This document shows, piece by piece, positions 5,830 to 48,233 of a DNA stretch of 64,000 bases. Each line of letters begins with the position of its first letter. The first letter of the stretch is position 1. This DNA comes from Pseudomonadota bacterium (GTDB lineage: Bacteria; Bdellovibrionota_G; JALEGL01; DATDPG01): positions 1 to 64,000 of the forward strand of contig JAZDDX010000039.1 of NCBI GenBank assembly GCA_043809315.1, written 5' to 3'. The translations under genes and the position numbers were made by a program. Below the pieces are notes generated by a model. That model ran no database searches. It was not told where the DNA came from and was given only the letters and a program-made list of their open reading frames with translations.

Positions 5830-5837
5830 CGACTCAC

Positions 5838-6893: not shown

Positions 6894-6934
6894 AGTGTGG
6901 CCAAATATAATGAAGCGCGCTAAAGATTCAACCG

Positions 6935-7246
6935 ATGGTTGTGGGAATCTTGCGCATGCGGCTCTACAACCGCGGGAGCCGTTCCCTGAAGGAGAAACGG
7001 CAAATCCTGCTCCGGATCAAGGACAAGATCGCGCATCATTACAACGTCGCGATCGCCGAGGTCGGCGACAACGACGACTGGAAGAGCGCCGTTTTGGGGA
7101 TCACCGCCGTCGGGAACGACCCGGCCTTCGTTCAGTCGGTCTTGGACAAAGTCGCTTCGACGATCGAAGGGTTCCATCTCGCCGAGACCCTCTCCCGCGA
7201 CACGATCGTCCGGACTTACTCCGAGGAAGAGTTTCTCAGGCGTTAA
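6935..7246 (+). CDS. DUF503 (YlxP-like) protein
   Basis: [23 protein letters not shown] signature. Confidence 0.88.
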
Positions 7247-12183: not shown

Positions 12184-12211
12184 GGCGACAGAACTCAACC
12201 CGCTCTAATAG

Positions 12212-12228
12212 ATCAAGGGACGTGCCAA
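12212..12228 (-). promoter_or_regulatory. Probable sigma54 promoter of the 3-gene secreted-protein operon
   Basis: Minus strand TTGGCAC-GTCCC-TTGAT (TTGA variant at -12); AT-rich IHF-like tract at 12250-12290; GCGACA direct repeat at 12298 and 12311. Confidence 0.6.
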
Positions 12229-12428
12229 AGACCGGTCGGACTATTCCTAGTAAATTCAATAGGTTTTGTTGTGATACTTGAATGATTTCAGAGACCTGCG
12301 ACACCTCAATGCGACATCCCGGCCCGCCCTGGCAATCTTAACATTTGGCCCATGGCGTCATGGTGGCGGGTTTGCCATTTTCAACCGGGGGGGACGTAAG
12401 GCCGTAAGTGCGCTAAAGACGCCCCAGA

Positions 12429-29932: not shown

Positions 29933-30124
29933 CTATGCGAAATCCCGGTCCATGACCGTCTTACGGCCTTCGGACTGGGCTTTCGCGATCGCTTGATCGC
30001 ACAGCATCCGGAGTCGGTCGGACAAAGCTTCGATAACCGCACCCGAGGTGTTCATCTGGGATTTATTCTTGATGTAACCCTTCAGCTTGGACGCAACGAC
30101 GAGGACCTCTTTCTTCTCTTCCAC
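29933..30124 (-). CDS. Bacterial histone-fold protein (Bd0055/HBb-like)
   Basis: EVLVVASKLK.YIK...MNTS..VIEALS......C..A...A..EGRKTVMDRD; histone RKTV..RD motif; RBS GGAG + GTG. Confidence 0.9.
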   Translation of the reverse strand: MEEKKEVLVVASKLKGYIKNKSQMNTSGAVIEALSDRLRMLCDQAIAKAQSEGRKTVMDRDFA

Positions 30125-32950: not shown

Positions 32951-35758
32951 ATGCGTTTTCGCATGCGCACCTTGGCTTGGTTCTTGAGCGCCCTGGCGAT
33001 TGCCTCGGCATCGCCATTCCTGGCTCGCTCCGCCGAACCGAAGCCCCCCCCAGGCTCCGACGATTGTCTCGCCTGCCACGAAATCGGTGAGGGAACCAAA
33101 AAACGGGAAGCGGGGGTTGCCCCCGTCTTCTCCGCTTCAGCGATCCTCGACTCCCCCCATTCCGCAATCCCTTGCGTCGGCTGTCACAAAGATCTCGAAA
33201 AGGCCGACTTCCCCCACAATGAAAAACTTCTCCCCGTCGATTGCGGCAAGTGCCACCCGGATCAGGAAAAGCAGTACACTGAGAGTTTGCATGGAGTGGC
33301 AGGGAAGCGGGGGGACCGGCTGGCACCGACCTGCAAGAGCTGCCACGGGGGTCACGCGATCCGCCGGAATTCGGACTTGGGCTCTCCCACCAACACCGTG
33401 AACGTCCCGGCTCTCTGCGGTCAGTGCCATCACGAAGGCTCCCCGGTTCAGCTCACGCACAAGATCCACCAGGACAAGATCCTCGAAAATTATACGGAGA
33501 GCATTCACGGGGAGGGGTTGTTTACGAAGGGGCTTCTCGTAACTGCAGTCTGCACAAGCTGCCACACGGCCCACCATGTCCTCCCCCACACCGACCCACG
33601 CTCCTCGATCGCGCAGAAACAGATCGCCAAAACCTGCATGAAGTGCCACGGGCAGATCGAGCGGGTCCATCGGAAGGTGATTCGGGGAGCCCTTTGGGAG
33701 AAGCAGCCGCACCTGATCCCCGCCTGCGTCGACTGTCATTCGCCTCATAAGATCCGGAAGGTCTTCTACGCGCAGGGGATGTCCGATCGGGACTGCCTGA
33801 TCTGTCACTCTCGGAACGATCTTCGGTCCGACCAAGGGATCGACAGCAAACGGCTATACGTGGACGCTCCGGAGCTAGCCGGTTCCCGCCATTCGCGCGT
33901 GGCCTGCGTGCAGTGCCACAGCGGGGCTTCCCCGACTCTCATCCGACCCTGCTCTGCCATCACCGCCAAAGTGGATTGCTCCGCCTGCCATGCCGAACAA
34001 GTTGAAACCTTCAACGACAGCGTTCATGGGAAACTCGCCAAAACGGGAAGCCCGGATGCACCGATCTGCCGCGACTGCCATGGAACTCACGGCACCCTCG
34101 GACGCACGAACTCCGAAGCCCCCACTTTCTCGCGAAATGTGCCGGCTCTTTGCGGCCGGTGTCATCGCAAGGGAGAAAAGGCGGCGGTCCGGTACACCGG
34201 CAGCGAAGTCGGGATGGTCGAACATTACCGGGAGTCGATCCACGGCAAAGGGTTGTTGGAGAGCGGGCTGACCGTCACGGCGACCTGCGTGAACTGCCAT
34301 ACCGCCCACTCCGAAAAGCCGGCCAAAGACCCGACTTCGAGCGTAAACCCGGAGAACATCGCCAAAACCTGCGCCCAGTGCCATCGCGGAATCTACGAGT
34401 TGTTCGCCGCCAGCATCCATTCACCGTCGGTCTCGAAGACGGACCAGAAGCTTCCGACCTGCACCGGTTGTCACACCGCCCATACCATCGGCCGGACCGA
34501 CGTCACCGACTTCCGCCTGCACATCATGGACCAGTGCGGAAACTGCCATGACGAGATCGCCAAGAGCTACTTCGACACGTACCACGGGAAGGTCTCCAAG
34601 CTGGGATACCTCAAGACCGCCAAATGCTACGACTGTCACGGCGCTCACGACACCCTTCCCACTTGGAACCCCAAGTCCCACTTGAGCCGGGCGAACATCG
34701 TGGCGACCTGCGCCCAGTGTCATCCGGGATCGAACCGTCGTTTCGCCGGGTATCTGACCCACGCCACCCATCACGACCCCGCGCGATACCCGTTCCTCTT
34801 CTACACCTTCTGGGGGATGACGATCCTTCTCCTGGGAACGCTGGCCGTCGGTTTCCTGCATACCGCTCTCTGGATTCCGCGATCCATCCAGTTCCGGCGG
34901 GAGCTCCAAAGGATCGAAGAGAAGACGGAGGAAACCCAGTACATCTGGCGGATCCGCCCGTTCTACTCGAAACTCCACCTGCTCGTCATCGTGAGCTTCT
35001 TCGCCCTCGCCCTGACCGGGATGACGCTCAAGTTCTCCTATACCGGCTGGGCCCGTGTCCTTGCGCATCTGTTCGGTGGATTCGAGTCGGCCGGGGTGAT
35101 CCACCGGATCGGGGCGGTCATCACCTTCTTCTATTTCGGCGCCCACCTGTACGATCTCTGTAAGCGCGCCCGGAAAGAGCCGGGAGGATTCCGCGCTCTC
35201 CTTCTGGGTCCGGACAGCATGATCCCGAACCGAAACGATCTCCGAGAACTGATCGGATCGATGAAATGGTTCCTCGGGCGTGGTCCAAGACCTCAATACG
35301 GACGCTGGACCTACTGGGAGAAATTCGACTATTTCGCAGTCTTCTGGGGGGTCGCCATCATCGGCTCGAGCGGCCTTCTCCTCTGGTTCCCGGAGTTCTT
35401 CACGCTGTTCCTTCCGGGTTGGGCGATCAACATCGCCACGATCATTCACAGCGACGAGGCGCTGCTCGCAGTCGGGTTCATCTTCACGGTCCACTTCTTC
35501 AACACCCACTTCCGGCCGGAGAAGTTCCCGATCGACACCGTCATCTTCACCGGGAGGACGCCGCTCGAGGAATACAAGGTGGACCGACCCCGCGAGTACG
35601 AGGAGTTGGTGGCATCCGGGAAACTGGCCGGGAGGCTCGGAGACGCGCCCTCCCCGCACGTCCACCATTTCTGGCGGACGTTCGGGTTCACGGCACTTGC
35701 GATCGGTTTGACTCTGATCGGACTGATCGTGTACGCGACGATCTTCGCGTACCGGTAG
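32951..35758 (+). CDS. 19-heme cytochrome c fused to a C-terminal di-heme cytochrome b (CbcL-like quinol oxidoreductase)
   Basis: 19 CxxCH counted; signal peptide; TM His residues (LHLL, IHRIG, AHLY, IHSDE, VHFF); YWEKFDYFAVFWG. Confidence 0.9.
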   Translation: MRFRMRTLAWFLSALAIASASPFLARSAEPKPPPGSDDCLACHEIGEGTKKREAGVAPVFSASAILDSPHSAIPCVGCHKDLEKADFPHNEKLLPVDCGKCHPDQEKQYTESLHGVAGKRGDRLAPTCKSCHGGHAIRRNSDLGSPTNTVNVPALCGQCHHEGSPVQLTHKIHQDKILENYTESIHGEGLFTKGLLVTAVCTSCHTAHHVLPHTDPRSSIAQKQIAKTCMKCHGQIERVHRKVIRGALWEKQPHLIPACVDCHSPHKIRKVFYAQGMSDRDCLICHSRNDLRSDQGIDSKRLYVDAPELAGSRHSRVACVQCHSGASPTLIRPCSAITAKVDCSACHAEQVETFNDSVHGKLAKTGSPDAPICRDCHGTHGTLGRTNSEAPTFSRNVPALCGRCHRKGEKAAVRYTGSEVGMVEHYRESIHGKGLLESGLTVTATCVNCHTAHSEKPAKDPTSSVNPENIAKTCAQCHRGIYELFAASIHSPSVSKTDQKLPTCTGCHTAHTIGRTDVTDFRLHIMDQCGNCHDEIAKSYFDTYHGKVSKLGYLKTAKCYDCHGAHDTLPTWNPKSHLSRANIVATCAQCHPGSNRRFAGYLTHATHHDPARYPFLFYTFWGMTILLLGTLAVGFLHTALWIPRSIQFRRELQRIEEKTEETQYIWRIRPFYSKLHLLVIVSFFALALTGMTLKFSYTGWARVLAHLFGGFESAGVIHRIGAVITFFYFGAHLYDLCKRARKEPGGFRALLLGPDSMIPNRNDLRELIGSMKWFLGRGPRPQYGRWTYWEKFDYFAVFWGVAIIGSSGLLLWFPEFFTLFLPGWAINIATIIHSDEALLAVGFIFTVHFFNTHFRPEKFPIDTVIFTGRTPLEEYKVDRPREYEELVASGKLAGRLGDAPSPHVHHFWRTFGFTALAIGLTLIGLIVYATIFAYR

Positions 35759-35764
35759 GTCGAA

Positions 35765-36091
35765 CTACTTCTGCTGCGACTTCACGTACTTCGTGATCTC
35801 GTCGGCTTCCGCGGGGGACACTTTCATCGCTTTCATCTTCCGGCTGCCTACTTCGATCGACTTCTTGATGGCTGCGTCGTCCAGCCCCTTCACCGCGGCA
35901 CCCGTCAGGTCCATCGTTTCCGGCTTCTCCGGCTTCATCATCTTCGTGATCTTCTCGTTCCCTTTCAGGTTGTCGCCGTGGCACTTCTTGCAGTGCTGGT
36001 CGTACAGCGCCTTCCCGTCCGCAAACGCGCTCGGAACCGAACCGAATGCCGCCAATGCCAAAATCGCCACCATGCTTCCCATGACTTTCAT
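35765..36091 (-). CDS. Periplasmic monoheme class I cytochrome c
   Basis: Signal peptide, CKKCH, distal Met (KMKAM). Confidence 0.9.
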   Translation of the reverse strand: MKVMGSMVAILALAAFGSVPSAFADGKALYDQHCKKCHGDNLKGNEKITKMMKPEKPETMDLTGAAVKGLDDAAIKKSIEVGSRKMKAMKVSPAEADEITKYVKSQQK

Positions 36092-36284
36092 TTCCTGAGT
36101 TCTCCTTTTTCGTTGGAATCCAACTGAGTTTTGAAACGGCCGGGCAATGTAGCGTGGTTTTCCTCAGAGGCAACAAAGAAACGAAGTTTCAACCTCCCCT
36201 TCGAAATTCTTCCCTTTTCTCTCCGCTCCTCTTACAAAGATCTGGAAACCAACCCTTTTTTGACCTACAGCCGAAAGACTCGCC

Positions 36285-37709
36285 ATGTTGAAATCGCTTG
36301 AAATTTTCTATCGGATCGTCACGAACAACGTGGCCGGGCTGATCGGCTCGATCTTCGCAACCTCCAGCACCCTCCTCTTCATCGGCTACTTCCTGGCGAT
36401 GCTGTCCGGGTTCGAAGGTGGGCCGTACTTCGGGATTCTCGTCTTCCTGATCAACCCCCTCTTCTTCGTCGGCGGCCTTCTGATGATCCCGTTCGGCCTC
36501 TGGCGGGAGAAGCAGAAACGGCTCCGCTCGGGGCAGGCGACCATCTCGTGGCGGGAACTGATCCAACTCCCCTCGTCTCCGGGCCGCCGGAAGCGCCTCT
36601 TCGTGATCTTCTCCGGCGTGACGGCTCTCAACGTGAGCATCTTGGTGGTCGCGGCCTACCAGGGGGTCCATGTGATGGAAACGACGGAGTTCTGCGGCAC
36701 CGCCTGCCACGCAGTGATGCAACCGGAGTACACCGCCTACCTCCGCTCGGCGCACGCTCGCGTCGGCTGCATCGGGTGCCACATCGGCTCCGGAGCCAGC
36801 TGGTTCGTCAAATCGAAGCTCTCCGGTTCCTGGCAGCTCGTGGCGGTTACTTTCAACCTATATCCGCGCCCGATCGAATCCCCGATCAAGAACCTCCGTC
36901 CCGCTCGTGAAACATGTGAGCAGTGCCACTGGCCGACCAAGTTCGTCGGCGACCGGCTCAAGATCAAGAGTCGTTTCAAGGAGGACGAGGGGAACACCGA
37001 GACGAAAACAGCCCTCCTGATGCGCGTCGGCGGGACGCAAGGGAGCCGGGCCCACGGGATCCACTGGCATGTGAACCCCGACAACAAGGTGGAATACCTC
37101 TCCGATGCCAAGCGGGAAACGATCTACAAGGTCAAGCTGACGGGGAAGAGCGGCCTCGTGACGGAATTCGAGGGCCCGGACGCGACCCCCCAGGCAAAGA
37201 ACGCCGAGTGGCGTGTGATGGACTGCATCGACTGCCACAACCGGCCGACGCACATCTTCCGGACGCCACAGGACGAGATCGATCTCGGGCTGGAAGAAGG
37301 GAGAATCGATCGCACCCTCCCGTTCGTCCGGCGGGAGGGGTTGGCGCTGCTCAAAGGCTCCTTTATGACGACGGGGGAAGCCTTACAGGCTGAGATGACG
37401 GGGAAGCTTCTGGCGTTCTACCGGGCGAATTATCCGCAGATCGCCGCCGACCGGAAGCCGTTGATCGACGATACCGCCGCCGTGCTCGCGGACCTTTATT
37501 CGAAGAACGTCTTCCCCCACATGCACGTGACCTGGGGGACCTACCCGAATCATTTGGGGCACGAGAACTCCCCGGGCTGCCAACGATGCCACGACGGGAG
37601 TCACAAGTCGAAAGACGGAAGGACGATCCCGGACGATTGCGACACCTGCCACAAACTGCTCGCCAACGAAGAGGTCAATCCGGAGATTTTGAAGCAGCTT
37701 CAGCCCTGA
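36285..37709 (+). CDS. NapC/NirT-domain inner-membrane multiheme cytochrome (ImcH-like)
   Basis: 3 N-terminal TM helices; FCGTACHAVM (Cx3CH) + 5 CxxCH; LRPARETCEQCHWP, GIHWH, CIDCHNRP.H, NVFP.M.VTWGTYP. Confidence 0.88.
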   Translation: MLKSLEIFYRIVTNNVAGLIGSIFATSSTLLFIGYFLAMLSGFEGGPYFGILVFLINPLFFVGGLLMIPFGLWREKQKRLRSGQATISWRELIQLPSSPGRRKRLFVIFSGVTALNVSILVVAAYQGVHVMETTEFCGTACHAVMQPEYTAYLRSAHARVGCIGCHIGSGASWFVKSKLSGSWQLVAVTFNLYPRPIESPIKNLRPARETCEQCHWPTKFVGDRLKIKSRFKEDEGNTETKTALLMRVGGTQGSRAHGIHWHVNPDNKVEYLSDAKRETIYKVKLTGKSGLVTEFEGPDATPQAKNAEWRVMDCIDCHNRPTHIFRTPQDEIDLGLEEGRIDRTLPFVRREGLALLKGSFMTTGEALQAEMTGKLLAFYRANYPQIAADRKPLIDDTAAVLADLYSKNVFPHMHVTWGTYPNHLGHENSPGCQRCHDGSHKSKDGRTIPDDCDTCHKLLANEEVNPEILKQLQP

Positions 37710-39633
37710 TCTCTTGAAGCTCCCGCGGGTGCTGGTGTTCCATCTCTTCCTCGGTCACTTTGCCGGTCAAAAAGATCAGGCTGACCGGGTATTCGTCCGG
37801 GTGAAAGATGACGAAGAAGAAGTGCCAGACGGCGATCGAGAGCCCCGCCAGCCAGGCCTCGTAATAGTGGATCACGTCGGCCAACGGAATCCCCCAAGAG
37901 GGGAACCCAAATAACTGGCTGATCTCTACCGGGAACCAGAGGGCGAATCCTGTCGCTCCCATGATGATCGTCCCCCAGATGACCGCCCAGTATTCCGCTT
38001 TGTGGACGTACGAATACCGCCCCAGGTGTGGGCGTCGTGCGCCCCGGCGGCCGGTCAGCTGCATCCAGTAGTATTTGAGCGAATCCCGGACCTCGAGAAG
38101 GTCGCGGAACCGGGGGAGCAGCTCCTTGATTTCGTGGCGCCCTTTCGGCGTCCAAATCGAATGAACGACGTGCAGAACCCCGGCCAGGAGCATGACGATC
38201 GCCGCCCCCCGGTGGATCAAGCGACGCGCCTCCTCCCCGACGTGAACCCAGTTCAAGAGGATCGTCCAGGGGGCGTCGAAGAATCGCAGGGCAAAGCCGG
38301 TCACGACTAACGTGATGAAGCTGGTCAGAAGCATCCCGTGCGTCACCAGCTGGAAGTTCGTGAAGCGCCGGTACCCTTTCTCCTTCCTTTGTTTCCGGAA
38401 CTTCTGCACGACGGCGGAGAAAAAGATCAAGGCGTTGTGCGCCAGCATCCCGCCGATCGTCCCGAAGATCAGCCAAAGATAAAGCTGACGAACGTAGAAT
38501 AATATCGGGGCCGAGGCTGGTGAGGTCTGGAGATGGACGGGGGTCCGTGCGAACGTCTCCCTAGCCCCCGGGTGACAGTTCCCGCAGGTCTTGGCCAAGT
38601 TCGAAACATGGATCGACGAATTCGGGTCGGAGGACGGGAGAATCTTGTGTCCCCCGTGACAGCTGGCGCAACCCGCCACGGTGACCGATCCCCGGCGTAC
38701 GGCGAGGCCGTGGTAACTGTCCTCGTAACTTGCGGTTCTGCCGGTCGAGAGACCATATCGTTTGGTGAGCATCAGATCGTCGTGACATTTTCCGCAGGTT
38801 TTGGCTGCGAGATGTGCCGGCGAGACCGGCGAGTTGGCGTCGTGCGTCCGTAAGATGCCGTGCTCGCCGTGGCAGTCGGCGCAGGAGGGGGCGTCCTCGA
38901 TCCCCTTCGCCAACGCCTGACCGTGGATCGAAGCGGTGTAATCCTCCACCATCTTCGCATGGCAGCGGCCGCAAGCGGCCGGGATCGCCTTCTTGGCGGT
39001 CTTGGAGGTCATCTCCCGCCCCGGCTGAACGGTGTGGGCGCCGTGGCAGTCGCTGCAGACGGCGGCCTTGAGGTTCCCCGCGGCGACCGCTTTTCCATGA
39101 ACCGAATCTTTGTACGCCGCGAACGGGTCGGCGACCGGGATGTCGTATTTCCGGATGAGGCTCACTTGGGCGTGGCAGCGGGCGCACATGCCGGGAATAT
39201 TGGCCCTGGCCTGTTTCGAGGCGGGGTTGTCGGACGGGAGGATCTCGTGGAGGTTCCCGTGGCAGTCGGCGCAAGCCGGGGCATCGGTGATTCCCTTCGC
39301 GCGCGCCAGCCCGTGAAAGCTTGCGTTGTACTGTTTGACCGCATCCTCGTGGCAGGAGGAACAGTCGACCTTCGGCGGCGCCTCTTCATGCGCTTGGAAC
39401 GGTCCTTTCGCGTGGCAATCGACGCAGTCGAGCCCCCCGTGCACGGAGGCCTCGAAGGCCTTCACGTTCAGGCCGTCATGACACTCCAGACAGGTTTGGG
39501 GCCGGATCTTCTTCGCCCCGGCCGCGACCGCCGAGGAAACCCAGACGGCCGCAACCAGGAACGAAAGAAAACAGAGACTACTTCGCTTGCTTCTGCAAGT
39601 CGCGCGAGTAAGCGGTGATCGCTTTCGCTTCAT
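37675..39633 (-). CDS. 11-heme cytochrome c fused to cytochrome b (second CbcL-like protein)
   Basis: 11 CxxCH counted; TM His residues; YVHKAEYWAVIWG; start overlaps the upstream cytochrome gene by 56 nt. Confidence 0.9.
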   Translation of the reverse strand: MKRKRSPLTRATCRSKRSSLCFLSFLVAAVWVSSAVAAGAKKIRPQTCLECHDGLNVKAFEASVHGGLDCVDCHAKGPFQAHEEAPPKVDCSSCHEDAVKQYNASFHGLARAKGITDAPACADCHGNLHEILPSDNPASKQARANIPGMCARCHAQVSLIRKYDIPVADPFAAYKDSVHGKAVAAGNLKAAVCSDCHGAHTVQPGREMTSKTAKKAIPAACGRCHAKMVEDYTASIHGQALAKGIEDAPSCADCHGEHGILRTHDANSPVSPAHLAAKTCGKCHDDLMLTKRYGLSTGRTASYEDSYHGLAVRRGSVTVAGCASCHGGHKILPSSDPNSSIHVSNLAKTCGNCHPGARETFARTPVHLQTSPASAPILFYVRQLYLWLIFGTIGGMLAHNALIFFSAVVQKFRKQRKEKGYRRFTNFQLVTHGMLLTSFITLVVTGFALRFFDAPWTILLNWVHVGEEARRLIHRGAAIVMLLAGVLHVVHSIWTPKGRHEIKELLPRFRDLLEVRDSLKYYWMQLTGRRGARRPHLGRYSYVHKAEYWAVIWGTIIMGATGFALWFPVEISQLFGFPSWGIPLADVIHYYEAWLAGLSIAVWHFFFVIFHPDEYPVSLIFLTGKVTEEEMEHQHPRELQEIRAEAASKSPD

Positions 39634-39946
39634 CCGCGGTCACTTTATCCTTCATCGGTTTCATCTTGCCAGTTCCTTCGAGAATCGCCTTCTCGAACTC
39701 GGCATCCGACAGTTTCTTCGCGTCGGCGGAGACGATGGAGAGCTTCGCCATCTGCTTCTCGTCGAGCTTCATCGTCTTGGCGATCGGCAGCCATTTCCCG
39801 TCCTTCATGCCGCTGCCGTCCGGGGCGTGACAGGTCTTGCATTTCCCTTCATAGACCGCCTTACCATCGGCCGCAGCCTGCGAAAGATTCCACGCGGCAA
39901 CCGCAATCGCCGCCACCGTAACTCCCAACAACGTCTTCTTGAACAT
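39578..39946 (-). CDS. Periplasmic monoheme cytochrome c, paralog of 35765..36091
   Basis: ADGKAVY..KCKTCH, GKMKPM. Confidence 0.9.
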   Translation of the reverse strand: MFKKTLLGVTVAAIAVAAWNLSQAAADGKAVYEGKCKTCHAPDGSGMKDGKWLPIAKTMKLDEKQMAKLSIVSADAKKLSDAEFEKAILEGTGKMKPMKDKVTADEAKAITAYSRDLQKQAK

Positions 39947-39973
39947 ACTCTCTCCTCGTTTAGTTAATAGTTA

Positions 39974-42900
39974 CTACCTCAATGTCGCATTCGGGAAGTC
40001 GGTAGCAAATGAATTCCCCCCGAGCGCCGTGTACGTCCCCTGCAGAAGTTGGACATAGAACGCGGTGTTGTGAATCCCGAAGCTCGCCTCGCGCACCAGC
40101 AGGTTGTGGTTCCAGACGGCTCTTCGGAGACGGTTCCCCAAGGTCGTGTCCTTGCCGGCACTCGCCACTTTGTCGAGCTTCATACAGTCCGCATTTACTG
40201 CACAGACTGTCGCCGGATCGTTGTCACACTTCAAGGCCGTGGTCGTGCCGCACAACCCGTCTCCGCCAGCCCGGTTGAAGCCGTAGCCGCTACCCTGGGC
40301 CGGATAGATGCTCTTTGTCGCGGAGCCCCAGCTGAAGCGGATCGCGGTGGGTCCGCAGTCGGTATCGGCTGTGCAGGACTTCTCCGAGGTTCCGATCTTG
40401 TTCGTGCATTTCCCTGTGCCGGTGTTGCACGTCCCCCAGTCGAAAGAACCGTACGTGGTCGAAGTTTGGCCCAGGCGTTTGAACGTACAGTCGGCATCGG
40501 CCTGACACAAATCGGCATTGTCGAGCGAGCATCGCTGCACTACTTTCGTGCCCGACGGGTCGCCAGTGCCGTCACAATCGCTCGCGGCGCTGCACTTCCA
40601 CCCACTTGTGTAGTCGGTCCCTCCGATCGTCCAGATACAGTACTTCTGCGTTCCACCCGATGACGGGATCGCGCAGGCTCCGGTGGAGCCTACCCCGAAA
40701 ACGGCAGGGTCAAAAACCGTTGCGCTACACGTTCCACCCGTCGCGGAGCCGTCCAGCGTCCGGATCTTGGCCGCCACAGCGACCAACAGCCCCTTCATCT
40801 CGTCCTCGACCCCTTCGATCGTGCCGTCGCCGTCATAGTCGGCTCGCGCCGGGCGGTTGAAGTCGGTCAGGCCGATGTGGCACAACTGACAAGGCTTGAG
40901 GTTTTGGAGGTCGGTCGTTTCATACGACGGTTCGGTCTCCTCCCCTTCCAGGTGACCGATCCCGTGGCTCCGCCGCTGCTTGAAGGCGTGGCCGCCGACA
41001 TGCAAGTACCCCTCTTCGGTCGCGCTCGGGCCCGGGTACATGTGGCAGGTGACACACTTGTTGTTCTCGTTCGGGAGCGACGTGTCCCCGGTTACCGCCG
41101 CGAGATTGAACCCCGGCTGGGAGTGGAACGAGTTCTCCGTCAATGTGAAATCGGCCGTGCCGTCCTTGTCCAGGTCGGTCATCGCCGCCTTCCCTTCGAG
41201 AACCGCCGCCTGGCCGTTGTAGTGAACCTGGCGCAGGTAGAAGTCGGCGCTCTGTTCCGGCGTCATGCACATCCCATTCGTGAGGCCGTCAGGCACACTG
41301 TCGTCGGTGCCGTCGACCACGCCGTCGCGGTTGAAGTCACAGTCCGCCTCATCCCAGTTGTAGAGAGCGTCGTGGCATTTATAACAGACGGCCGCCTTCC
41401 CGGCGTTCACCGTCTGCCCCGTCGCGACCATTGTTACGTTCCCGAACGCTCGCAACTGGTTCGGATTCGTCGCGTCGTGCGGATCGTGACAGCCAGCGCA
41501 ACCCACGTTCACGAACGAGCCGTAGGTTTTGTCGACCGCGGTCAACTCCTCCCCGGCCGCATATTGCGCAAACCCCTCGGAGGTGTGACAACGAACGCAT
41601 CCCACTTCCGTAGGCCACTCGGCCTGGTCGGCCGTTTCGTTGTGCTTCGAGTTGACCCACTGGGCCTCTTCGAGATGGCACTGGCCGCAAACGCCGGTCT
41701 GGGCAAACGAGAAGGAGATCGCGGTCGGGTTGCCGTTGTGGAGACTCCCGGGGCCGTGACAGTTCTCACACTGAATGTTGGCAAGCGCGGCCACCTTCGG
41801 GTTTGCTGTCACAAAATCGGCGAAGGTCGCCGGCGCATCTGTGATCGAGAACCCTTCGGAGGTGACGAGATCGTCGAATCCGCCGTTCGCCGCGTCGGTG
41901 CAGTAACCGACCGTCTCGAATGCCCAAAGGTACGGTTCCGGGGCCAACGCCGACATCGAGGTATATGAATTCTCGAAAACGGAGGCGTGTTTCGTCTCTT
42001 TCCACTCCGTCACCATATCGGGCTCAACGACACCGTTGTGGCAGGTTCCGCATTCCGGAGCCCTCGGGCTGGTGCTCGCGATCGTACCGACGCCGACGAA
42101 CTCTGCGGCGTTGATTCGGATCTTGCCGGTTATCGCACCGCTCGTTGAACTGTACGCCACGGTGTAGAGACCCGCGACGTCCGGCGTGAATTTCGGGAAC
42201 TGAAGCGCCGAAGCGGAGGTTCCCGTATCGGCAAATGTGGCGGACGAACCGGACGGGCGCGTCAGAGTCCAGCTCCAGTCAGTGATTGCCGCGTAAGCCG
42301 GGGTCTGATTCGGGCCCCCCATATAAACGACCGTCCCAATCCCGACGTTGTTGAGACCGCTCGTCGGCCAGATGATCTTATCGTTGTCCTGGAGATAAAC
42401 CGGGAAAGTCGTTTCGTCCGAATTTCCATCGGCATCCGTGACCACCAGCTTGAAAAGAACCTGCAGATTGCTCGCCGAGATCGGAAGCGGCTGCCACTTG
42501 TACTGGTTGGCCGACGTTCTTGTCGTATTCGTATCGTCATCTTTCCCCACCTGCTCGATCCCGACGAGCCCGGGGGCTGTGAACGACAGGGTCGACTCGG
42601 TCAACGCTCCCGCCGGAATCGCGCTCGGCCCGGCCACCTGCGACCATTTGTAGGAAGCGATGGTTCCTGAAGCCCGGCTGGTCGCTCCGGACAAGATCCC
42701 GCCGGTTTGGTCGAGGTTCATTATATTCTCAGTCGCCCCGAACCGGGTTCGCGTCGTGACGGCCGATCCGTCCCCGTTCGTGATCGTCGCCAGGATCGTT
42801 TTCGCCGTGACGGTGAGCGTGTCGGTTGCTTTGCCGCTGTTGATGCTCAAGTGAAGGACGTAATCCCCCGCCTTGTCGGCCGTGAAGGTCGGTGCAAGCG

Positions 42901-43135
42901 ACGTACCGCCCGCCAGCGTCGCCGCCGATCCCGACGGACTCGACGTCAGCGTCCACTGCGCCGTCGTGACGTTGGTCGAGGAGGCGCCGTTCAGCGTGAC
43001 CTTGTCCCCCACCAGAACCTTCTGGTCCGCCCCGGCATTCGCCGTCGGCGTTCCGGCCGGCCCACTACTGGAACAACCAGCCACTGATAGCGCCAGTCCG
43101 ATGAGAACGGTCACAAACAGGTTCTTACGCTTCAT
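39974..43135 (-). CDS. Large 8-heme cytochrome c lipoprotein with PKD/Ig-like domains (putative extracellular conduit subunit)
   Basis: RBS GGAGGAG; ATG 43135; lipobox VAGC; PTANAGADQ PKD start; 8 CxxCH; C-terminal GIHN. Confidence 0.88.
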   Translation of the reverse strand: MKRKNLFVTVLIGLALSVAGCSSSGPAGTPTANAGADQKVLVGDKVTLNGASSTNVTTAQWTLTSSPSGSAATLAGGTSLAPTFTADKAGDYVLHLSINSGKATDTLTVTAKTILATITNGDGSAVTTRTRFGATENIMNLDQTGGILSGATSRASGTIASYKWSQVAGPSAIPAGALTESTLSFTAPGLVGIEQVGKDDDTNTTRTSANQYKWQPLPISASNLQVLFKLVVTDADGNSDETTFPVYLQDNDKIIWPTSGLNNVGIGTVVYMGGPNQTPAYAAITDWSWTLTRPSGSSATFADTGTSASALQFPKFTPDVAGLYTVAYSSTSGAITGKIRINAAEFVGVGTIASTSPRAPECGTCHNGVVEPDMVTEWKETKHASVFENSYTSMSALAPEPYLWAFETVGYCTDAANGGFDDLVTSEGFSITDAPATFADFVTANPKVAALANIQCENCHGPGSLHNGNPTAISFSFAQTGVCGQCHLEEAQWVNSKHNETADQAEWPTEVGCVRCHTSEGFAQYAAGEELTAVDKTYGSFVNVGCAGCHDPHDATNPNQLRAFGNVTMVATGQTVNAGKAAVCYKCHDALYNWDEADCDFNRDGVVDGTDDSVPDGLTNGMCMTPEQSADFYLRQVHYNGQAAVLEGKAAMTDLDKDGTADFTLTENSFHSQPGFNLAAVTGDTSLPNENNKCVTCHMYPGPSATEEGYLHVGGHAFKQRRSHGIGHLEGEETEPSYETTDLQNLKPCQLCHIGLTDFNRPARADYDGDGTIEGVEDEMKGLLVAVAAKIRTLDGSATGGTCSATVFDPAVFGVGSTGACAIPSSGGTQKYCIWTIGGTDYTSGWKCSAASDCDGTGDPSGTKVVQRCSLDNADLCQADADCTFKRLGQTSTTYGSFDWGTCNTGTGKCTNKIGTSEKSCTADTDCGPTAIRFSWGSATKSIYPAQGSGYGFNRAGGDGLCGTTTALKCDNDPATVCAVNADCMKLDKVASAGKDTTLGNRLRRAVWNHNLLVREASFGIHNTAFYVQLLQGTYTALGGNSFATDFPNATLR

Positions 43136-43163
43136 GGATTTCTCCTCCCTAACTTTTTGTTGG

Positions 43164-43838
43164 CTAAGACCGAGCATGACAAACCTCACAAGCGGTTCCG
43201 TTATCCGTGTGCCGCAGCGGCGTGTGGCAGGTCCGACAGTCGACCCCCACCCCATGCTTGGCGTTCGCGGGAAGTCTCGGCGTCAAGGCGTGCGACGTCG
43301 AACCGCGGTGACAGGTGGCACAACCCTGCCCCCCCACCGACTCGAGCGGGTAGTGACAGCTCACGCAGTGCCGGTTGAGCGGCGACCCCCACCCCGCCGT
43401 GTGCGTCATCGGACGGGTGCTCGAATGGCATCGCTCGCAGAAATCGGTGTGATGGCAGGTCTCGCACCGGGTTCGGTTGAATCCGACCTGGAGACCGTGT
43501 CCTTTGATCCGGAAGAACTGATTGTGATCCTGCGGCGTCGTCTGTTGATGGCAATCGTTGCAGAAGTAGGCCGAGGAGTGGCAGATCACACAGTAGTTCG
43601 TGTTCACCAGGCCGAAGCGGCGGATCAGCCGGCCGTGCTCCCGCATCCAGAGCACGTCGTGCCCCGGCGGCTTCGTCTTCGTCGACATCCCCTCCGTATG
43701 GCACTCGGTGCAATCCGTTTTCGTAGCGACCGCGGGGTGGTCGAACTTCGTCCCTTCGCACCCCTTGTTCCCCATCGCAAACGGGAGAAGCGCCGCCACC
43801 AGGACCGTGGGAACGACCGAGCGTCTCAAAACTTCCAT
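43164..43838 (-). CDS. 9-heme cytochrome c (OmaB-like conduit subunit)
   Basis: 9 CxxCH in 224 aa; repeated P..H...(W/F)...HG...CxxCH..FCxxCH units. Confidence 0.88.
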   Translation of the reverse strand: MEVLRRSVVPTVLVAALLPFAMGNKGCEGTKFDHPAVATKTDCTECHTEGMSTKTKPPGHDVLWMREHGRLIRRFGLVNTNYCVICHSSAYFCNDCHQQTTPQDHNQFFRIKGHGLQVGFNRTRCETCHHTDFCERCHSSTRPMTHTAGWGSPLNRHCVSCHYPLESVGGQGCATCHRGSTSHALTPRLPANAKHGVGVDCRTCHTPLRHTDNGTACEVCHARS

Positions 43839-45178
43839 ACGACCCTCGTGTCGACGGTGTGAAAATTCGCGAGCGAATCCTGCTCGAACTCGTATCCGAC
43901 CCGCCCATCGAGACTCTCCAGAATCTTCATCGAAACCCGGGCGAAATAGGTCCGGACATCCTCTGACTCGTTTCCCGTGAAGAGGTTATAGCGATAGAGG
44001 TAGAACGCCGTTCCCCCCGACAGCCGCATCCGCCGTTGCCAGACCTCCTGGTCCGCCGCGAACGATGCGCTGAACAGGTTGTTCTTGAACGTGCTGTCGG
44101 TCCCGTGAAAGTAATCGCCGGTAGCCGAAAGACTCATCCCTTCCAGCGGAAACCCGGCCGTCGAGACCGTTACGAAACCGCGCTGGTATCCGTGGTTGAA
44201 TGCGCTCCCGATCTGCGTGTCCCGCAGGAAGCGTCCCATATACCCGAGGTCGACGAAGAAGTGTTCTCCGAACCCTTTCGTGACCGTCGTCATCACCTCA
44301 AAAAACGGCTCGTACGAGCCGATGAATCCGTAAGCGTCGAAATCGATCGCCCGGATCCCTTGCGGCTTGAGGAGTGTGTAGAAGCGGTTCTCGATCGTCA
44401 GCTTCTGATCCGGAACAAGCATCCGGACCTCCGTACGGAGATCCCGAACCTGGTCCGAAAATGCCGTGAATCTCGTGCTGACCATTACGTTCGGGTCGAG
44501 ATCGAACCAGAGGCTGGTGCCGAAGAGCGTGTCTTCCTGATCGCCGAAGTTCGCGCGAAACCCGGATCCCTTATCCCGCAGATGAACCATGTCGAAACGG
44601 AACCGCGCCCAAGGTGCCGGATCGAACTGCAGCGCTCCGCCCGCCATCCAATCCCCGGTCTGATGACCGAGGCGGTTTTCAAACAGGTGGACCGGGATCC
44701 CGCCGAACGCGGTCACTGAAAGCCCCGCCGCGCTTCCCGTCTGGAGGGTCGCCCCGTCGTAATGAAGCGATTCGAATTCGTACCGGTACTGTCGGCCGGC
44801 CCGGAACTTCTCGAACGGGCCCGCTTCCTTCACGTCGACGTACGCGTGGTAGATCCGTTCGACCGCCGCCGAGTTGAACCCGCCGTAGACGTCGGCGAAC
44901 GGCCCGGTGTTCTTCCGGCCGTCCACGTTGAAGACCCCCCCCACCTGAACCGATCCGGTCACCCGATCCGAAAAAGCGTCCCCGAACTCGGCCGAACCGA
45001 CCGTTTCAATATCCTGGTCGCTGACCCCCTCCGCCGTCCGGAAGCGGTACCGCGTCGACAGGGATCCGTGGGTCGTATAGGCGAAAACCGGGGTAGCGGC
45101 GCATGCCAGAGCGAGGAAAAACCCAAATAGTTTCGGAAGAAATCCCACGAAGAAGAGAAAAGGATAAGAACGGCCCAT
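43826..45178 (-). CDS. Large outer-membrane beta-barrel porin (porin-cytochrome conduit)
   Basis: Signal peptide, amphipathic aromatic-rich strands, terminal VVWKF; overlaps the multiheme gene; alternative GTG start 45148. Confidence 0.82.
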   Translation of the reverse strand: MGRSYPFLFFVGFLPKLFGFFLALACAATPVFAYTTHGSLSTRYRFRTAEGVSDQDIETVGSAEFGDAFSDRVTGSVQVGGVFNVDGRKNTGPFADVYGGFNSAAVERIYHAYVDVKEAGPFEKFRAGRQYRYEFESLHYDGATLQTGSAAGLSVTAFGGIPVHLFENRLGHQTGDWMAGGALQFDPAPWARFRFDMVHLRDKGSGFRANFGDQEDTLFGTSLWFDLDPNVMVSTRFTAFSDQVRDLRTEVRMLVPDQKLTIENRFYTLLKPQGIRAIDFDAYGFIGSYEPFFEVMTTVTKGFGEHFFVDLGYMGRFLRDTQIGSAFNHGYQRGFVTVSTAGFPLEGMSLSATGDYFHGTDSTFKNNLFSASFAADQEVWQRRMRLSGGTAFYLYRYNLFTGNESEDVRTYFARVSMKILESLDGRVGYEFEQDSLANFHTVDTRVVWKF

Positions 45179-45201
45179 CTATGTCATATGATTTAGATCA
45201 C
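45161..45201 (-). promoter_or_regulatory. FNR/CRP-like box and -10 element of the porin-cytochrome operon
   Basis: GTGAT-CTAA-ATCAT (45201-45188) and TATCCT (45166-45161), with class II activator spacing. Confidence 0.55.
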
Positions 45202-47285
45202 CTTCCTGAGACCAGGTCGATTTCTTTCGCACCGTATCCGGACCACTTCAGTTGCTGCCGCAAGAAGCTCTCGGAATCGACGAGCCGGACATCGACCGGG
45301 CGTCCCCCCTGCTCGATCAACTGCAGCTCAGGATAGACGTAGGCGCAGTAGCTCGGAAGCCCGAGCTTCTTTTTCCGATCCCGGATCTCGGTCGCCAGTT
45401 TCGAATCGTACGTTGCCGCCCCGTACCCCTGCGCCAGTTTCCGGATCGCCGGGAGATCCCCTTCGGACTTGATCCGTTGAAGTTCGCGGAGCAGTTCATC
45501 CACGGCCTGTCGCATCCTCGGAATGTTCTCGTCCCGCACGACCCAGAATGTTTTCATATGTCCGCCCACTTCGCGCCGGACCTCCTCGACGACCCCCCAT
45601 TTCTTCCGGAAAAAGTTGACCGCGAAGAGACCGCCGACTTGATGCGGCTCCTCCAGATTCGTCGAACCGAGGGGGATCTCCGCCAGGCCAATCAGCTCGG
45701 ACACGGGATACTGTTTATACATTGCTCTCGCGGCCTCGTCCGACCAATCCTTCCGGATCCGGAACGTCTCGGGGTCCCAGGCATGGTGAAGCGCCAGGAG
45801 ATCGGCCCGTTCCTCCTCCAGCCAGCTGTAGTAGCCGGGGAGGTAGTGGCTCGGATCCTCCGTCAATTTCGGATTCGCCTGTCCCGAGGCGTGCCCCAGC
45901 GTTTCATGGAACCCCACCAGGATCTCGATCGCCGCCTGCCGGTGTTTCAGCAGAATCTCCTGATCCTCGGGGATCACGAACTCGCGCACCGCCTTCTCCC
46001 CGATGATCTCGTCCCGTGCTCTCTTGGTGTTCCACAGGAGAACGTTCTTGCTCCCGTATTGCACGCGGAGAGCTTGATCGTTCGGAAGGTTGACCCCGCT
46101 GAAGCTGATCGGTCCGGCCTCCCCCGCCTCGACCAACACCTCGACCATGTTCGCAATCGGCTTCACCCCGCTTCGTTTGTATGCGTCCGAAATCGGGGCG
46201 TGCGATTCGTAGTAATCGGCCTTGGAAGCGACCTCCCGGAGCCAGCCGGAGCTCTCCTCGTCCACGAAGTAGGTCATCCCTTCCCAAGCCCCCTTCTTTT
46301 CCCGGGGATCGAGGTACTCCTCGATGAATCCGTTGATGATGTCGACCGTCGGCTTGGAATAGGCGAGCCAGGCGATGTTGTATTTCGTGAACAGCTTCGG
46401 ATCCCCCGTCCGGTAGTACTCCGCAAGAAGCCTGAGCGACTTCGCGTTCTCGGGGGTGGCGTACTCCACCGCTTCGTCGAGATGCCCGGCCACCTTCGCA
46501 AGATACGGAGCGTAGATTCCGGGCGGGATCTTTTTCGACGGGTCACCGGCCCGCGCAACTTGCTCGACGATCTTTTTCCCCTCCCGGGCGAGTCGCGAGT
46601 TCAACGGATGAAGATCCGTGAACCTTTGAAGGTCGGATAAGTGGATCCCACGGTCATAATAGTTGTTGGCGCTCGCGGTGAGAAGATCCTCCCCCGGTTT
46701 CGGCGACCGGGAGGTCACGAAAGGTTCGAACGCAGGATCGAAGATCGTCCGGCGCAACGAATCGGCATATTCCCGAACCTCCCGCTTCCCCTGCGACTGG
46801 AAGACGGCTCCGTTCCGCTTCGCGCGTTCCATCGCATCTTCGAACTTCCCATAGGTGATCCTTTTCGGCGGCAGAAGCTTGGCGTAGGTGAACTTCCCGT
46901 AGATCCCGGTATTGAGATACTGCAGCTTGAGATACGTCGCGATTTCCCCGAGCAGTTTCTTGTCGATCCCATCGGAGTGGAGAAGGATCTCCTCGCAGAC
47001 CTGCCGGATCTCGAGATTGCGCCGGTGAAGCTGATCGAAGTGGATATCCCGCCCCGCAACGGCCGCCTGGTACAAATGATAGGCGAGCAGTTTGTCGTTG
47101 AGCGACAGACGGTCGAACCCCTTAACCGGGAGCCTCAAGATCGCGTACTCCTCCACCGTTTCGAGGGGCGCGGCAGATCCCCCTTTGGCGGGATGGGGCC
47201 GAGGCCGGGAGCAGGAAGCCAGAACGAACGCCATCAAAACGATCCCTGCGAGGGAACAGCCGACCGGTGTGGCATGAATCCTCAT
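45198..47285 (-). CDS. Dipeptidyl-peptidase III (M49) lipoprotein
   Basis: HETLGH (HExxGH), EEERAD, GVNLPND...GSKNV; lipobox LASC. Confidence 0.9.
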   Translation of the reverse strand: MRIHATPVGCSLAGIVLMAFVLASCSRPRPHPAKGGSAAPLETVEEYAILRLPVKGFDRLSLNDKLLAYHLYQAAVAGRDIHFDQLHRRNLEIRQVCEEILLHSDGIDKKLLGEIATYLKLQYLNTGIYGKFTYAKLLPPKRITYGKFEDAMERAKRNGAVFQSQGKREVREYADSLRRTIFDPAFEPFVTSRSPKPGEDLLTASANNYYDRGIHLSDLQRFTDLHPLNSRLAREGKKIVEQVARAGDPSKKIPPGIYAPYLAKVAGHLDEAVEYATPENAKSLRLLAEYYRTGDPKLFTKYNIAWLAYSKPTVDIINGFIEEYLDPREKKGAWEGMTYFVDEESSGWLREVASKADYYESHAPISDAYKRSGVKPIANMVEVLVEAGEAGPISFSGVNLPNDQALRVQYGSKNVLLWNTKRARDEIIGEKAVREFVIPEDQEILLKHRQAAIEILVGFHETLGHASGQANPKLTEDPSHYLPGYYSWLEEERADLLALHHAWDPETFRIRKDWSDEAARAMYKQYPVSELIGLAEIPLGSTNLEEPHQVGGLFAVNFFRKKWGVVEEVRREVGGHMKTFWVVRDENIPRMRQAVDELLRELQRIKSEGDLPAIRKLAQGYGAATYDSKLATEIRDRKKKLGLPSYCAYVYPELQLIEQGGRPVDVRLVDSESFLRQQLKWSGYGAKEIDLVSGR

Positions 47286-47297
47286 GGTCCCGTCTTC

Positions 47298-48233
47298 CTA
47301 TTCCTTCACCGCCACGCCGAACCGCACGAGCTTCGCCGAGGAGCCGGCCTCGACCGGGAGAAGGAACGTGGCCGCTCCAAGATCCATGGAAAACGCGGTG
47401 ACCGGACCCTTCCAGTCGGCCGGAACGGCCGGTATCGCGACCTCCCCTCCCTTGACTGTGACGGCGAAAACGCGCCCGGTCGCCCGGTCTGCGGTCATCA
47501 GATGAGAGCGGTACGGTTCGATCCCGGTCAGGTCGGTCCCCGGAAACGCTTTCAGTAATTCCGTCTGACGGCTTTTGAGGTTCACGATCGCGATCGCGCT
47601 CCCCCCCTCGGTATTCCCGGCTTGTGTCGCCACGAGGTAAAGACGGCGCCCGTCGGACGAAGCGCGCAGATACCGCGGTTCCCCCAATCCGGTTTTCTCG
47701 AGCGCTTCGGCGCCGAGGATCACCTCGACGGTTTTTTTCTTCGGGTCGAGCGACCAGATCTGTTTCGCCGACGGGGAACAGAAATAAGCACGGGCGTTCA
47801 GAATCGAATAGTCGATCGACGTGATCTCCCCGGCCCCGGAGATCGGGATCTCGATCGGAGGGGTGTCCGACTTCTTCGATTTTACGAGACCGAGAAACCC
47901 TCCGACTTTCGCGATCTTCAGGAGATCCTTCTCCGCCCAGAAAAGGCGTCCATGCCGTGCATCGTATGCGATGGCGGTCGGACTACTCGACGCGGGAGAG
48001 AGATCCTCCAGCTTCCCCCCGTGAACACTTGCCAGCATCCAACTTCCACCCTCCACCGGCCGTGCCACCAGATAGGTTCCCGGTGCATCGATCGCCAACC
48101 CCGCTGCGGGAGAAAGGCCGTCTCGAAGAACCTCCACGGCCGGTTCGGTCCGACGAGCCGGCTCCCCCCGCTTTCCCGCGCAACTCGCGGCGAGTCCAAT
48201 CAATAGATAGACGAGTGTCTTGTTTTGTCCCAT
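47298..48233 (-). CDS. Lipoprotein, probable beta-propeller
   Basis: Lipobox AASC; PAAGLAID, PTAIAYD, PRYLRASSDG blade-like repeats. Confidence 0.65.
   Translation of the reverse strand: MGQNKTLVYLLIGLAASCAGKRGEPARRTEPAVEVLRDGLSPAAGLAIDAPGTYLVARPVEGGSWMLASVHGGKLEDLSPASSSPTAIAYDARHGRLFWAEKDLLKIAKVGGFLGLVKSKKSDTPPIEIPISGAGEITSIDYSILNARAYFCSPSAKQIWSLDPKKKTVEVILGAEALEKTGLGEPRYLRASSDGRRLYLVATQAGNTEGGSAIAIVNLKSRQTELLKAFPGTDLTGIEPYRSHLMTADRATGRVFAVTVKGGEVAIPAVPADWKGPVTAFSMDLGAATFLLPVEAGSSAKLVRFGVAVKE

Follow-up and report, generated by a model that had tools for sequence, protein, structure and literature searches.

The 64,000-nucleotide (nt) stretch analysed here (the window) is the start of contig JAZDDX010000039.1 in a 2.42-Mb draft genome of 44 contigs and 96% completeness (GenBank GCA_043809315.1; G000 in our set), whose assembly contains no 16S ribosomal RNA gene, so that its placement comes only from NCBI labels on the proteins of relatives and from our lineage table. 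At positions 32951-45178 the window carries eight adjacent genes, g1 to g8, that probably encode all of a pathway for extracellular electron transfer (EET), of the porin–cytochrome conduit (Pcc) kind, leading from the quinol pool to the cell surface. Comparison with related loci identifies a conserved core of monoheme cytochrome, porin, nonaheme cytochrome and lipoprotein cytochrome, joined to an inner-membrane partner that is interchangeable between loci. All eight genes described in an earlier reading of the window, made from its letters without database searches (the sequence-only reading), were recovered at the same coordinates and on the same strands, as follows (lengths in amino acids, aa; heme-binding motifs as CXXCH or CX3CH):

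g1, 32951-35758, plus strand, 935 aa, 19 CXXCH: 19-heme domain and cytochrome b membrane domain of the CbcL/MtrH/MtoC type
g2, 35765-36091, minus strand, 108 aa, 1 CXXCH: class-I monoheme cytochrome c
g3, 36285-37709, plus strand, 474 aa, 5 CXXCH and 1 CX3CH (CGTACH, residue 137): ImcH-type inner-membrane cytochrome
g4, 37675-39633, minus strand, 652 aa, 11 CXXCH: 11-heme periplasmic domain and FdnI/HydC-type cytochrome b
g5, 39578-39946, minus strand, 122 aa, 1 CXXCH: class-I monoheme cytochrome c with signal peptide
g6, open reading frame (ORF) 39974-43255, minus strand, 1093 aa as an ORF, 8 CXXCH: surface lipoprotein cytochrome
g7, 43164-43838, minus strand, 224 aa, 9 CXXCH: nonaheme cytochrome c
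g8, 43826-45178, minus strand, 450 aa, 0 CXXCH: outer-membrane beta-barrel ('porin')

The eight genes hold 54 CXXCH motifs and one CX3CH, which together make up the 55 heme c motifs counted in the sequence-only reading, and the five multiheme ORFs of the locus contain 52 of the 125 CXXCH motifs in the genome, where 12 ORFs have at least three. Genes g8, g7, g6, g5 and g4 follow one another closely on the minus strand: g8 and g7 overlap by 13 nt, g7 and g6 are separated by 28 nt and g6 and g5 by 27 nt (taking g6 to start internally at 43135, see below), and the g4 ORF runs 56 nt into the end of g5. On the other side, g2 (minus) and g3 (plus) diverge from a 193-nt spacer, and g1 (plus) converges with g2. 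From this spacing we infer that g4 is the last gene of the minus-strand operon and that g2 is a transcription unit of its own; a promoter and terminator scan of the locus gave sites no more numerous than in shuffled sequence, so these units are drawn from spacing alone. A search for sequencing runs listed one of DNA (share 0.30) and none of RNA.

A conserved core of a probable conduit, with interchangeable partners

Within the phylum-level group of our lineage table, which comprises 17 species genomes, the porin occurs in three, and further loci were collected from metagenomes in a scan with a 5-sequence porin alignment. Scanning the genome collection with g8 gave one weak locus only (L001), without cytochromes. 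In genome G003, which belongs to a different genus and whose contig proteins are labelled 'Bdellovibrionota bacterium' by NCBI, the same five genes g8-g7-g6-g5-g4 stand in the same order (locus L005, on contig G003:C19) at 45-61% identity, and in G005 the porin, nonaheme and lipoprotein genes are kept up to the end of the contig. In metagenome locus L015, at 41.5% guanine plus cytosine (GC), genes for a monoheme, a porin, a nonaheme and a 7-heme lipoprotein all point the same way and are adjoined by a divergent unit of NrfD, iron–sulfur (FeS) and tetraheme genes. Metagenome locus L016 (44.5% GC) begins with two lipoprotein multihemes, porin and nonaheme; an ImcH homologue and a monoheme follow, and after these come another porin and nonaheme and a g6-like lipoprotein, so that its two porin–nonaheme copies (4985-7071 and 11252-13365) stand in tandem with the ImcH homologue and monoheme between them. 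The short contigs L017, L018 and L019 each carry a porin followed by a nonaheme.

Taken over all loci, a nonaheme homologue follows the porin in nine of nine porin genes that have at least 600 nt of downstream sequence (G000, L005, L006, L015, both copies in L016, L017, L018 and L019; L014 and L020 end too early), across contigs of 41% to 60% GC, and a monoheme gene lies beside the conduit in all four long loci (G000, L005, L015 and L016). The adjoining inner-membrane partner is of the CbcL type in G000 and G003, of the ImcH type in L016 and an NrfD/FeS/tetraheme unit in L015.

The gathering of all tiers (inner membrane, periplasm and outer membrane) in one locus, as the sequence-only reading had it, is plausible for this genome. 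Its compactness is real here but particular to this genome and its closest relatives: the ImcH gene of G003 lies ~70 kb off the operon, and in G005 the ImcH homologue, a 19-heme fusion 76% identical to g1 and a monoheme form a separate co-directional unit on another contig, so the all-in-one layout of eight genes is specific to that narrow set. Homologues of g3 (75% identity) and g4 (68%) were also found, each on a 3788-bp contig from the same source, probably one and the same contig. Downstream of the operon in G003 (L005:2700-7878) are genes for a Rieske protein, a cytochrome b, a 9-heme cytochrome and a class-I-type (PF00034) cytochrome c with four heme motifs.

The predicted outer-membrane conduit

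The product of g8 has a signal peptide and a near-invariant C-terminal Phe, and its AlphaFold2 (AF2) model, built from a 72-sequence alignment, is a 22-strand barrel (predicted local distance difference test, pLDDT, 89.3; predicted template modelling score, pTM, 0.83). Neither g8 nor g7 matched a Pfam or NCBIfam model, and for g8 this includes the Pfam family MtrB_PioB. Foldseek searches with the g8 model returned generic large outer-membrane barrels only, the best being the PapC usher pore (template modelling score by query 0.54), and the fold resembles AlgE, Occ porins and ushers; its structural neighbours in the Atlas include PEP-CTERM-associated and alginate-export barrels, and the nearest Atlas clusters are auto-labelled Nitrospirota, Zixibacteria and Myxococcota. 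The g8 family comprises 518 representatives at E<=1e-3. None of the 150 listed representatives contains a CXXCH motif, nor does g8 itself, and a Cyc2-type fused cytochrome–porin was rejected on these grounds.

The g7 reading frame overlaps the stop of g8 by 13 nt. All nine of its heme motifs and 10 further His residues are invariant in six of six homologues, and a search of solved structures by sequence matched nothing. A Cys at residue 27 (G-N-K-G-C), just past the signal peptide, is likewise invariant in all six, without a canonical lipobox.

Modelled as a complex, g8 and g7 scored 0.80, 0.62 and 0.08 in three runs, giving a median interface score (ipSAE) of 0.62; the highest score among three controls was 0.00. 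This median passes the mark of the modelling tool, which is reached by 116 of 157 solved complexes and by 2 of 215 mismatched pairs, counts that serve as a rough guide only for the present models, which used our own alignments. Confident contacts fall on alternate residues of strands round the whole barrel and, on the g7 side, on residues 63-144, which carry hemes 2-5; the middle of g7 is therefore predicted to sit in the lumen of g8, as expected for a threaded cytochrome, although g7 itself reached a pLDDT of only 46-54 in a complex modelled without hemes. These models agree with the sequence-only reading, which had made its case depend on the 450-aa protein folding as a barrel able to hold the nine-heme protein.

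For g6 the most likely start is an internal Met at 43135, giving a gene at 39974-43135 and a product of 1053 aa with a signal peptide and lipobox (...LSVAGC). The lipobox is followed by about three immunoglobulin (Ig)/PKD-like domains (K319L-like PKD, 45.6 bits), the 8-heme region, a Cys-rich insertion and conserved C-terminal helices. In the AF2 model, residues 30-345 form beta-sandwich domains with pLDDT >90, the heme region lies at ~70-90 and residues 798-995 fall to <40. Tandem Ig-domain surface proteins dominate the Foldseek matches to this model, which leave the heme domain uninformed. The heme region has 275 homologues, the best of which are mostly PKD-plus-multiheme proteins of ~780-1000 aa from metagenome-assembled genomes (MAGs). 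The orthologue in G003 aligns over the full length at 45% identity, and among the best 120 of the 275 it is, with one metagenome protein, the only sequence to cover the insertion (~200 Cys-rich residues, mature residues about 798-995). Residues 484-528 weakly match the solved structure 6i5b, which we take to be Thermincola OcwA.

The monoheme cytochromes

Both g2 and g5 are class-I cytochromes c by Pfam and are paralogues of 41% identity, g5 matching PF13442 and PF00034; g5 is presumed to be a periplasmic carrier. Among solved structures the two come nearest to small c-552 carriers from Kuenenia (E 1e-5 for g5), and MtoD was not seen among the matches of either at E<=1. At the likely distal-ligand position (alignment A6) g5, g2 and the monohemes of L005 and L012, all four from this lineage, read KMK, and those of the low-GC loci L015 and L016 read KHK, pointing to a possible switch from His/Met to His/His ligation within one conduit-associated family. 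Class-I cytochromes with His/Met ligation are usually of high potential. The proposal in the sequence-only reading that monohemes replace triheme shuttles of the PpcA type is plausible for the locus, but the genome encodes small cytochromes with 3 and 4 hemes in other places.

Inner-membrane cytochromes of two families

Judged by published features, g4 and g1 fit into the CbcL/MtrH/MtoC family and g3 into that of ImcH. CbcL/MtrH/MtoC proteins are described as having 3-23 N-terminal CX2CH motifs, a length of 416-1034 aa, conserved b-heme His residues, a membrane domain resembling the cytochrome b subunit of formate dehydrogenase and an identity of at least ~28% to the characterised CbcL, MtrH and MtoC, most members being predicted with six transmembrane (TM) segments, an N-terminal one included (PMC6295460). 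The ranges of length and motif number accommodate both g4 (11 motifs, 652 aa) and g1 (19 motifs, 935 aa), each of which showed four C-terminal TM segments in a crude hydropathy scan at its threshold. The cytochrome b family PF01292 matched g4 at 45.1 bits, above its cut-off of 30.1, and g1 at 23.2 bits, below it. Membrane-domain residues His 399, 432, 474, 589 and 604 (g4 numbering) are invariant in 15 of 15 sequences, g1 included. Over the same 15 sequences, which come from diverse lineages, ten of the 11 g4 heme motifs were listed as fully invariant; the first motif is the one not listed, and within the third, C91 is only nearly invariant.

Over g4 residues 61-645, g1 is 35% identical to g4, and it matches the same g4 orthologue from G003 twice, with residues 11-368 and again with the overlapping residues 268-885, so that g1 looks like a g4-type protein whose heme block has been internally duplicated. 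The G003 orthologue of g4 occupies the same operon position at 61% identity; outside the closest relatives the listed matches of g4 are mostly at 37-45% identity, those with names being called only 'cytochrome b/b6 domain-containing' or 'cytochrome c3 family', and searches of solved structures by sequence gave weak matches only.

Members of the ImcH family are described as having three N-terminal TM helices, an adjoining atypical CX3CH, 5-9 CX2CH motifs and a NapC/NirT-like region, and as sharing 31-49% identity with Geobacter ImcH (PMC6295460). The g3 protein has three TM helices (residues 16-34, 50-68 and 105-123), matches PF03264 (NapC/NirT) at 39.5 bits against a cut-off of 24.1 and weakly matches NrfH (2j7a) among solved structures by sequence. 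Its listed homologues are 52-58% identical, some of them labelled Acidobacteriota, Thermoanaerobaculia, Gammaproteobacteria or Pseudomonadota. With g3 and with g4 as query, more than 7000 of 8000 scored candidates were retained at E<=1e-3; both families are very widespread.

Comparison with known systems

By architectural definition the locus is a Pcc cluster with CbcL- and ImcH-family partners. The Pcc class comprises a barrel of 18-22 strands, a periplasmic cytochrome of 5-14 hemes and, for the majority of members, an outer lipoprotein cytochrome, with sequence identities that fall as low as 8-13% (Shi et al. 2014, PMC4245776); the 22 strands of g8, the 9 hemes of g7 and the lipobox and 8 CXXCH of g6 all lie within these features. 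Genes for inner-membrane and periplasmic cytochromes often adjoin pcc clusters, and some of these neighbours encode heme c proteins similar to the cytochrome b of formate dehydrogenase (PMC4245776). Likewise, mtoC or mtrH lies next to mtoAB or mtrAB and mtoD in the mtoA-mtoB-mtoD-mtoC and mtrH clusters (PMC6295460). Since both kinds of cluster already join a conduit to inner-membrane and periplasmic cytochromes, the design principle is known, and the comparison does not bear out the suggestion in the sequence-only reading that the system may be of a new kind.

Among characterised conduits, the order of porin-like protein, small periplasmic multiheme and outer-membrane lipoprotein cytochrome recalls OmbB-OmaB-OmcB of Geobacter sulfurreducens in architecture. 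The inner cytochrome has 9 hemes here and 8 there, the outer cytochrome is an 8-heme PKD/Ig lipoprotein in place of the 12-heme OmcB, and the present operon is without an OrfR-type regulator but includes a class-I monoheme and a CbcL-type gene. The presence of ImcH and CbcL types in one genome is also shared with Geobacter, judged by features: g3 has the three TM helices, CX3CH, CX2CH motifs and NapC/NirT-like region of ImcH, though with 5 CX2CH motifs compared with 6 in the Geobacter ImcH group, and g4 and g1 join multiheme domains to an FdnI/HydC-type cytochrome b with conserved His. CbcL has 9 hemes; the two CbcL-type paralogues here have 11 and 19 and, unlike Geobacter CbcL, lie beside a conduit. 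In Desulfuromonas acetexigens the ImcH and CbcL homologues bear consecutive accession numbers (PMC12133095).

The mtoA-mtoB-mtoD-mtoC cluster and the mtrH cluster of Rhodoferax resemble the locus in grouping a conduit, a small periplasmic monoheme and a CbcL/MtrH/MtoC-family fusion (PMC6295460). They differ in the conduit itself, which consists of an MtrB-type porin with 28 predicted trans-membrane motifs and a decaheme MtrA (PMC4245776), compared with 22 strands in g8 and 9 hemes in the 224 aa of g7, and Mto clusters are without an outer cytochrome, where the present locus has g6. Assignment to MtrAB, MtoAB or PioAB was rejected on the strand number of g8 and its lack of an MtrB_PioB match, together with the heme number of g7 and its lack of any family match. 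PCC3 and PCC4, proposed from genomes alone for Fe(II) oxidisers, likewise join porin and multiheme genes and have an inner-membrane partner of their own; in PCC3 the cytochromes contain low-complexity repeats, their median heme number being 21 for the periplasmic and 34 for the extracellular ones, and the PCC3 inner-membrane protein is of ~300 aa with 5 TM segments and two WX3HX13H motifs (He et al. 2017, PMC5566968). With no gene of this 5-TM, WX3HX13H type at 30-48 kb of the window and with heme counts of 8-19, these too were rejected.

An MtrAB-like operon was proposed in 2026 for iron reduction in magnetotactic Bdellovibrionota, in whose MAGs FeGenie at default settings is reported to have found no iron genes (PMC13200544). 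It is the one EET-type report on Bdellovibrionota that our searches found, and EET potential under this label is therefore not wholly new. Our literature searches on EET clusters and on Bdellovibrionota found no published description of the present cluster. What appears to be undescribed is the sequence family of porin plus nonaheme (for which there is no curated model), its constant monoheme companion and its presence in this lineage; the locus thus appears to combine parts of known kinds in a way not previously described.

Respiratory context and direction of electron flow

Respiratory enzymes were surveyed by single Pfam searches of the 44-contig draft genome. These found no cytochrome c oxidase, no bc1 cytochrome b (PF00033), no nitrate-reductase-type molybdoenzyme and no RuBisCO. 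Of heme-copper enzymes they found one, a NorB that carries the NorB cytochrome-c-like domain (quinol-dependent nitric oxide reductase, qNOR, type), and of molybdoenzymes only a fusion resembling NAD-formate dehydrogenase and, on contig C27, a frame of 873 aa with a weaker match. Cytochrome bd and two NiFe hydrogenases are present, and within the window are also genes for a superoxide dismutase (Fe/Mn) and, in part, a pyruvate:ferredoxin oxidoreductase. CcmF/CcmC-type genes for cytochrome c maturation, a check for which the sequence-only reading had called, were found. In this survey no internal sink is evident for electrons that reside on c-type cytochromes of the periplasm, and ImcH homologues are so far known only from reducers (PMC6295460). 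Together these two points favour outward flow, which we regard as the likeliest direction, with fair rather than high confidence.

The pathway that we propose would begin at the inner membrane, where g4 and g1 (CbcL/MtrH/MtoC type) and g3 (ImcH type) would act as three quinol:cytochrome c oxidoreductases draining the quinol pool; by analogy with Geobacter, the three may serve acceptors of different potential. Their long periplasmic heme arms, together with the monohemes g5 and g2, would carry electrons over the periplasm, g7 inside the 22-strand g8 would take them across the outer membrane, and g6 would hand them to the acceptor; minerals of Fe(III) or Mn(IV), humics, electrodes and partner cells are candidates. 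In this scheme we infer the localisation of the proteins, the order of the carriers and the outward direction.

Several observations weigh against this pathway. One of the three g8-g7 runs scored only 0.08, the fold of g7 is itself uncertain (pLDDT 46-54, no hemes) and the complex score may partly reflect likeness to solved MtrAB-type complexes. The link to cytochromes stands for the closer subfamily of porins within a broad family (~30% identity). If Met is their distal ligand, g2 and g5 would suit Fe(II) oxidisers or high-potential acceptors better than they would ferrihydrite reduction. The absences on which the argument for direction draws are those of single Pfam searches in a draft assembly, and CbcL-family proteins are described from Fe(II) oxidisers as well (PMC6295460).

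The chief alternative is that electrons flow inward, as in Mto systems. Drawn by the conduit from a donor (Fe(II), minerals, a cathode or a partner cell), they would pass through the monohemes and the CbcL/MtoC-type proteins to quinone and on to cytochrome bd or qNOR. We consider this unlikely, though well worth keeping in mind. A Met where the distal ligand of g2 and g5 probably lies suggests a fairly high potential, cytochrome bd is available as a quinol sink, and the sequence-only reading too held that direction could not be read from sequence. However, the searches found neither cytochrome c oxidase nor bc1, so that the downhill branch which Fe(II) oxidisers usually have is missing; RuBisCO was not found either, and among solved structures neither g2 nor g5 matches MtoD at E<=1. 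The reduction of menaquinone by Fe(II) would, moreover, be an uphill step. In combining a conduit with a class-I monoheme and a gene of the CbcL family, the module resembles the mtoA-mtoB-mtoD-mtoC cluster of Fe(II) oxidisers, but the ImcH family to which g3 is assigned is described in the same source only from reducers (PMC6295460).

It is also conceivable, though improbable in our view, that the conduit is not for respiring minerals or electrodes in general but for one extracellular substrate in particular, non-metal or soluble in nature; elemental sulfur or polysulfide, selenite or tellurite, and humic quinones would be examples. Pcc clusters have been described in respirers of S0, selenate and nitrate that do not reduce Fe(III) oxides (PMC4245776), and the three Ig/PKD-like domains and the Cys-rich insertion of g6 could bind a particular substrate. 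Models of the Ext (selenite/tellurite) operon showed weak, sub-threshold similarity to g1 and to a 135-aa triheme cytochrome on contig C7, but every such match lies far under the cut-off, no catalytic subunit (molybdoenzyme or rhodanese) is encoded in or beside the locus, and three different quinol oxidases suggest acceptors over a range of potentials. That there is no trans-membrane conduit at all, g8 serving simply for diffusion or export, as ordinary barrels do, and the cytochromes forming a network within the periplasm alone, e.g. for detoxification or electron storage, would accord with the likeness of g8 to generic barrels (AlgE, Occ porins and ushers), with its PEP-CTERM-associated and alginate-export neighbours in the Atlas and with the run at 0.08, but is highly improbable given the adjacency of porin and nonaheme in nine of nine cases over unrelated contigs, the median complex score above every control with contacts in the lumen, and the lipobox and surface-type Ig domains of g6.

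Returning to the outward Pcc pathway, we tentatively offer a broader reading of the comparative data, which we think rather less than probable. The combination of monoheme, 22-strand barrel, nonaheme and Ig-lipoprotein might represent a distinct and as yet unnamed conduit family, a 'fifth PCC type', distributed across uncultured lineages, in which the class-I monoheme, with His/Met or His/His ligation, would act as an adaptor that plugs one wire into CbcL, ImcH or NrfCD dehydrogenases; in the small-genome, histone-bearing, Bdellovibrionota-like lineage studied here it might be the main respiratory outlet. If so, the lifestyle of this lineage would be non-predatory and based on respiring minerals or a partner, and the 12-kb locus would be a naturally portable, full EET cassette.

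If the locus is functional, cytochrome-based extracellular respiration extends to a small phylum-level lineage, one relative of which is labelled with the Bdellovibrionota name that is usually tied to predators. A compact 12-kb cassette with every tier would be convenient for heterologous reconstitution, and with it one could ask how a single conduit is supplied by alternative quinol oxidases. The conserved module that the comparison brought out (monoheme, porin, nonaheme and lipoprotein, with swappable partners) may in the end prove of more use than the locus itself.

Flanking genes and other loci in the genome

The genes flanking the locus encode MscL, a DUF481 protein, an SRPBCC protein, an M49-like peptidase and OmpA-family proteins. 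GC content is flat over the window, and with flat GC and flanks of housekeeping genes the term 'island' in the sequence-only reading finds no support in the sense of a mobile element: we rejected a mobile island, and the locus is a gene cluster without the marks of one. Directly upstream of the porin, at 45198-48233 on the minus strand, are genes for an M49-peptidase-like lipoprotein (695 aa) and a 311-aa lipoprotein of no family, separated by gaps of 19 and 12 nt, which may be co-transcribed with the porin; this neighbourhood is not kept in G003, L015 or L016.

Two further claims about the flanks held up. The histone gene is a 63-aa ORF at 29933-30124 (minus strand), which matches the solved 64-66-aa histone-fold structures 8cmp_A and 8fvx_A, presumably Bdellovibrio Bd0055, at E 6e-13 over nearly its full length, and also the DUF1931 protein 9qt0 (2e-9); PF00808 had no match in the genome, this ORF included. 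The RCC1/FN3 lipoprotein corresponds to an RCC1/FN3 protein at 1171-3351 whose N-terminus reads like a lipoprotein signal.

Elsewhere in the genome, C24:77096-81860 (L007:7096-11860) holds a possible second, MtrAB-like conduit. A 294-aa decaheme protein aligns end to end with the DmsE/MtrA model at 159 bits, under the cut-off of 192, and is followed by a 640-aa secreted protein of no family, with 13-heme and 4-heme cytochromes flanking the two; the gene pair resembles the MtrAB-like operon described for magnetotactic Bdellovibrionota (PMC13200544). At C26:65111-67132 (L008:5111-7132) a 673-aa ORF with 27 CXXCH motifs in c7/c3-type repeats adjoins the gene for a cyclic nucleotide (cNMP)-binding 4Fe-4S protein.

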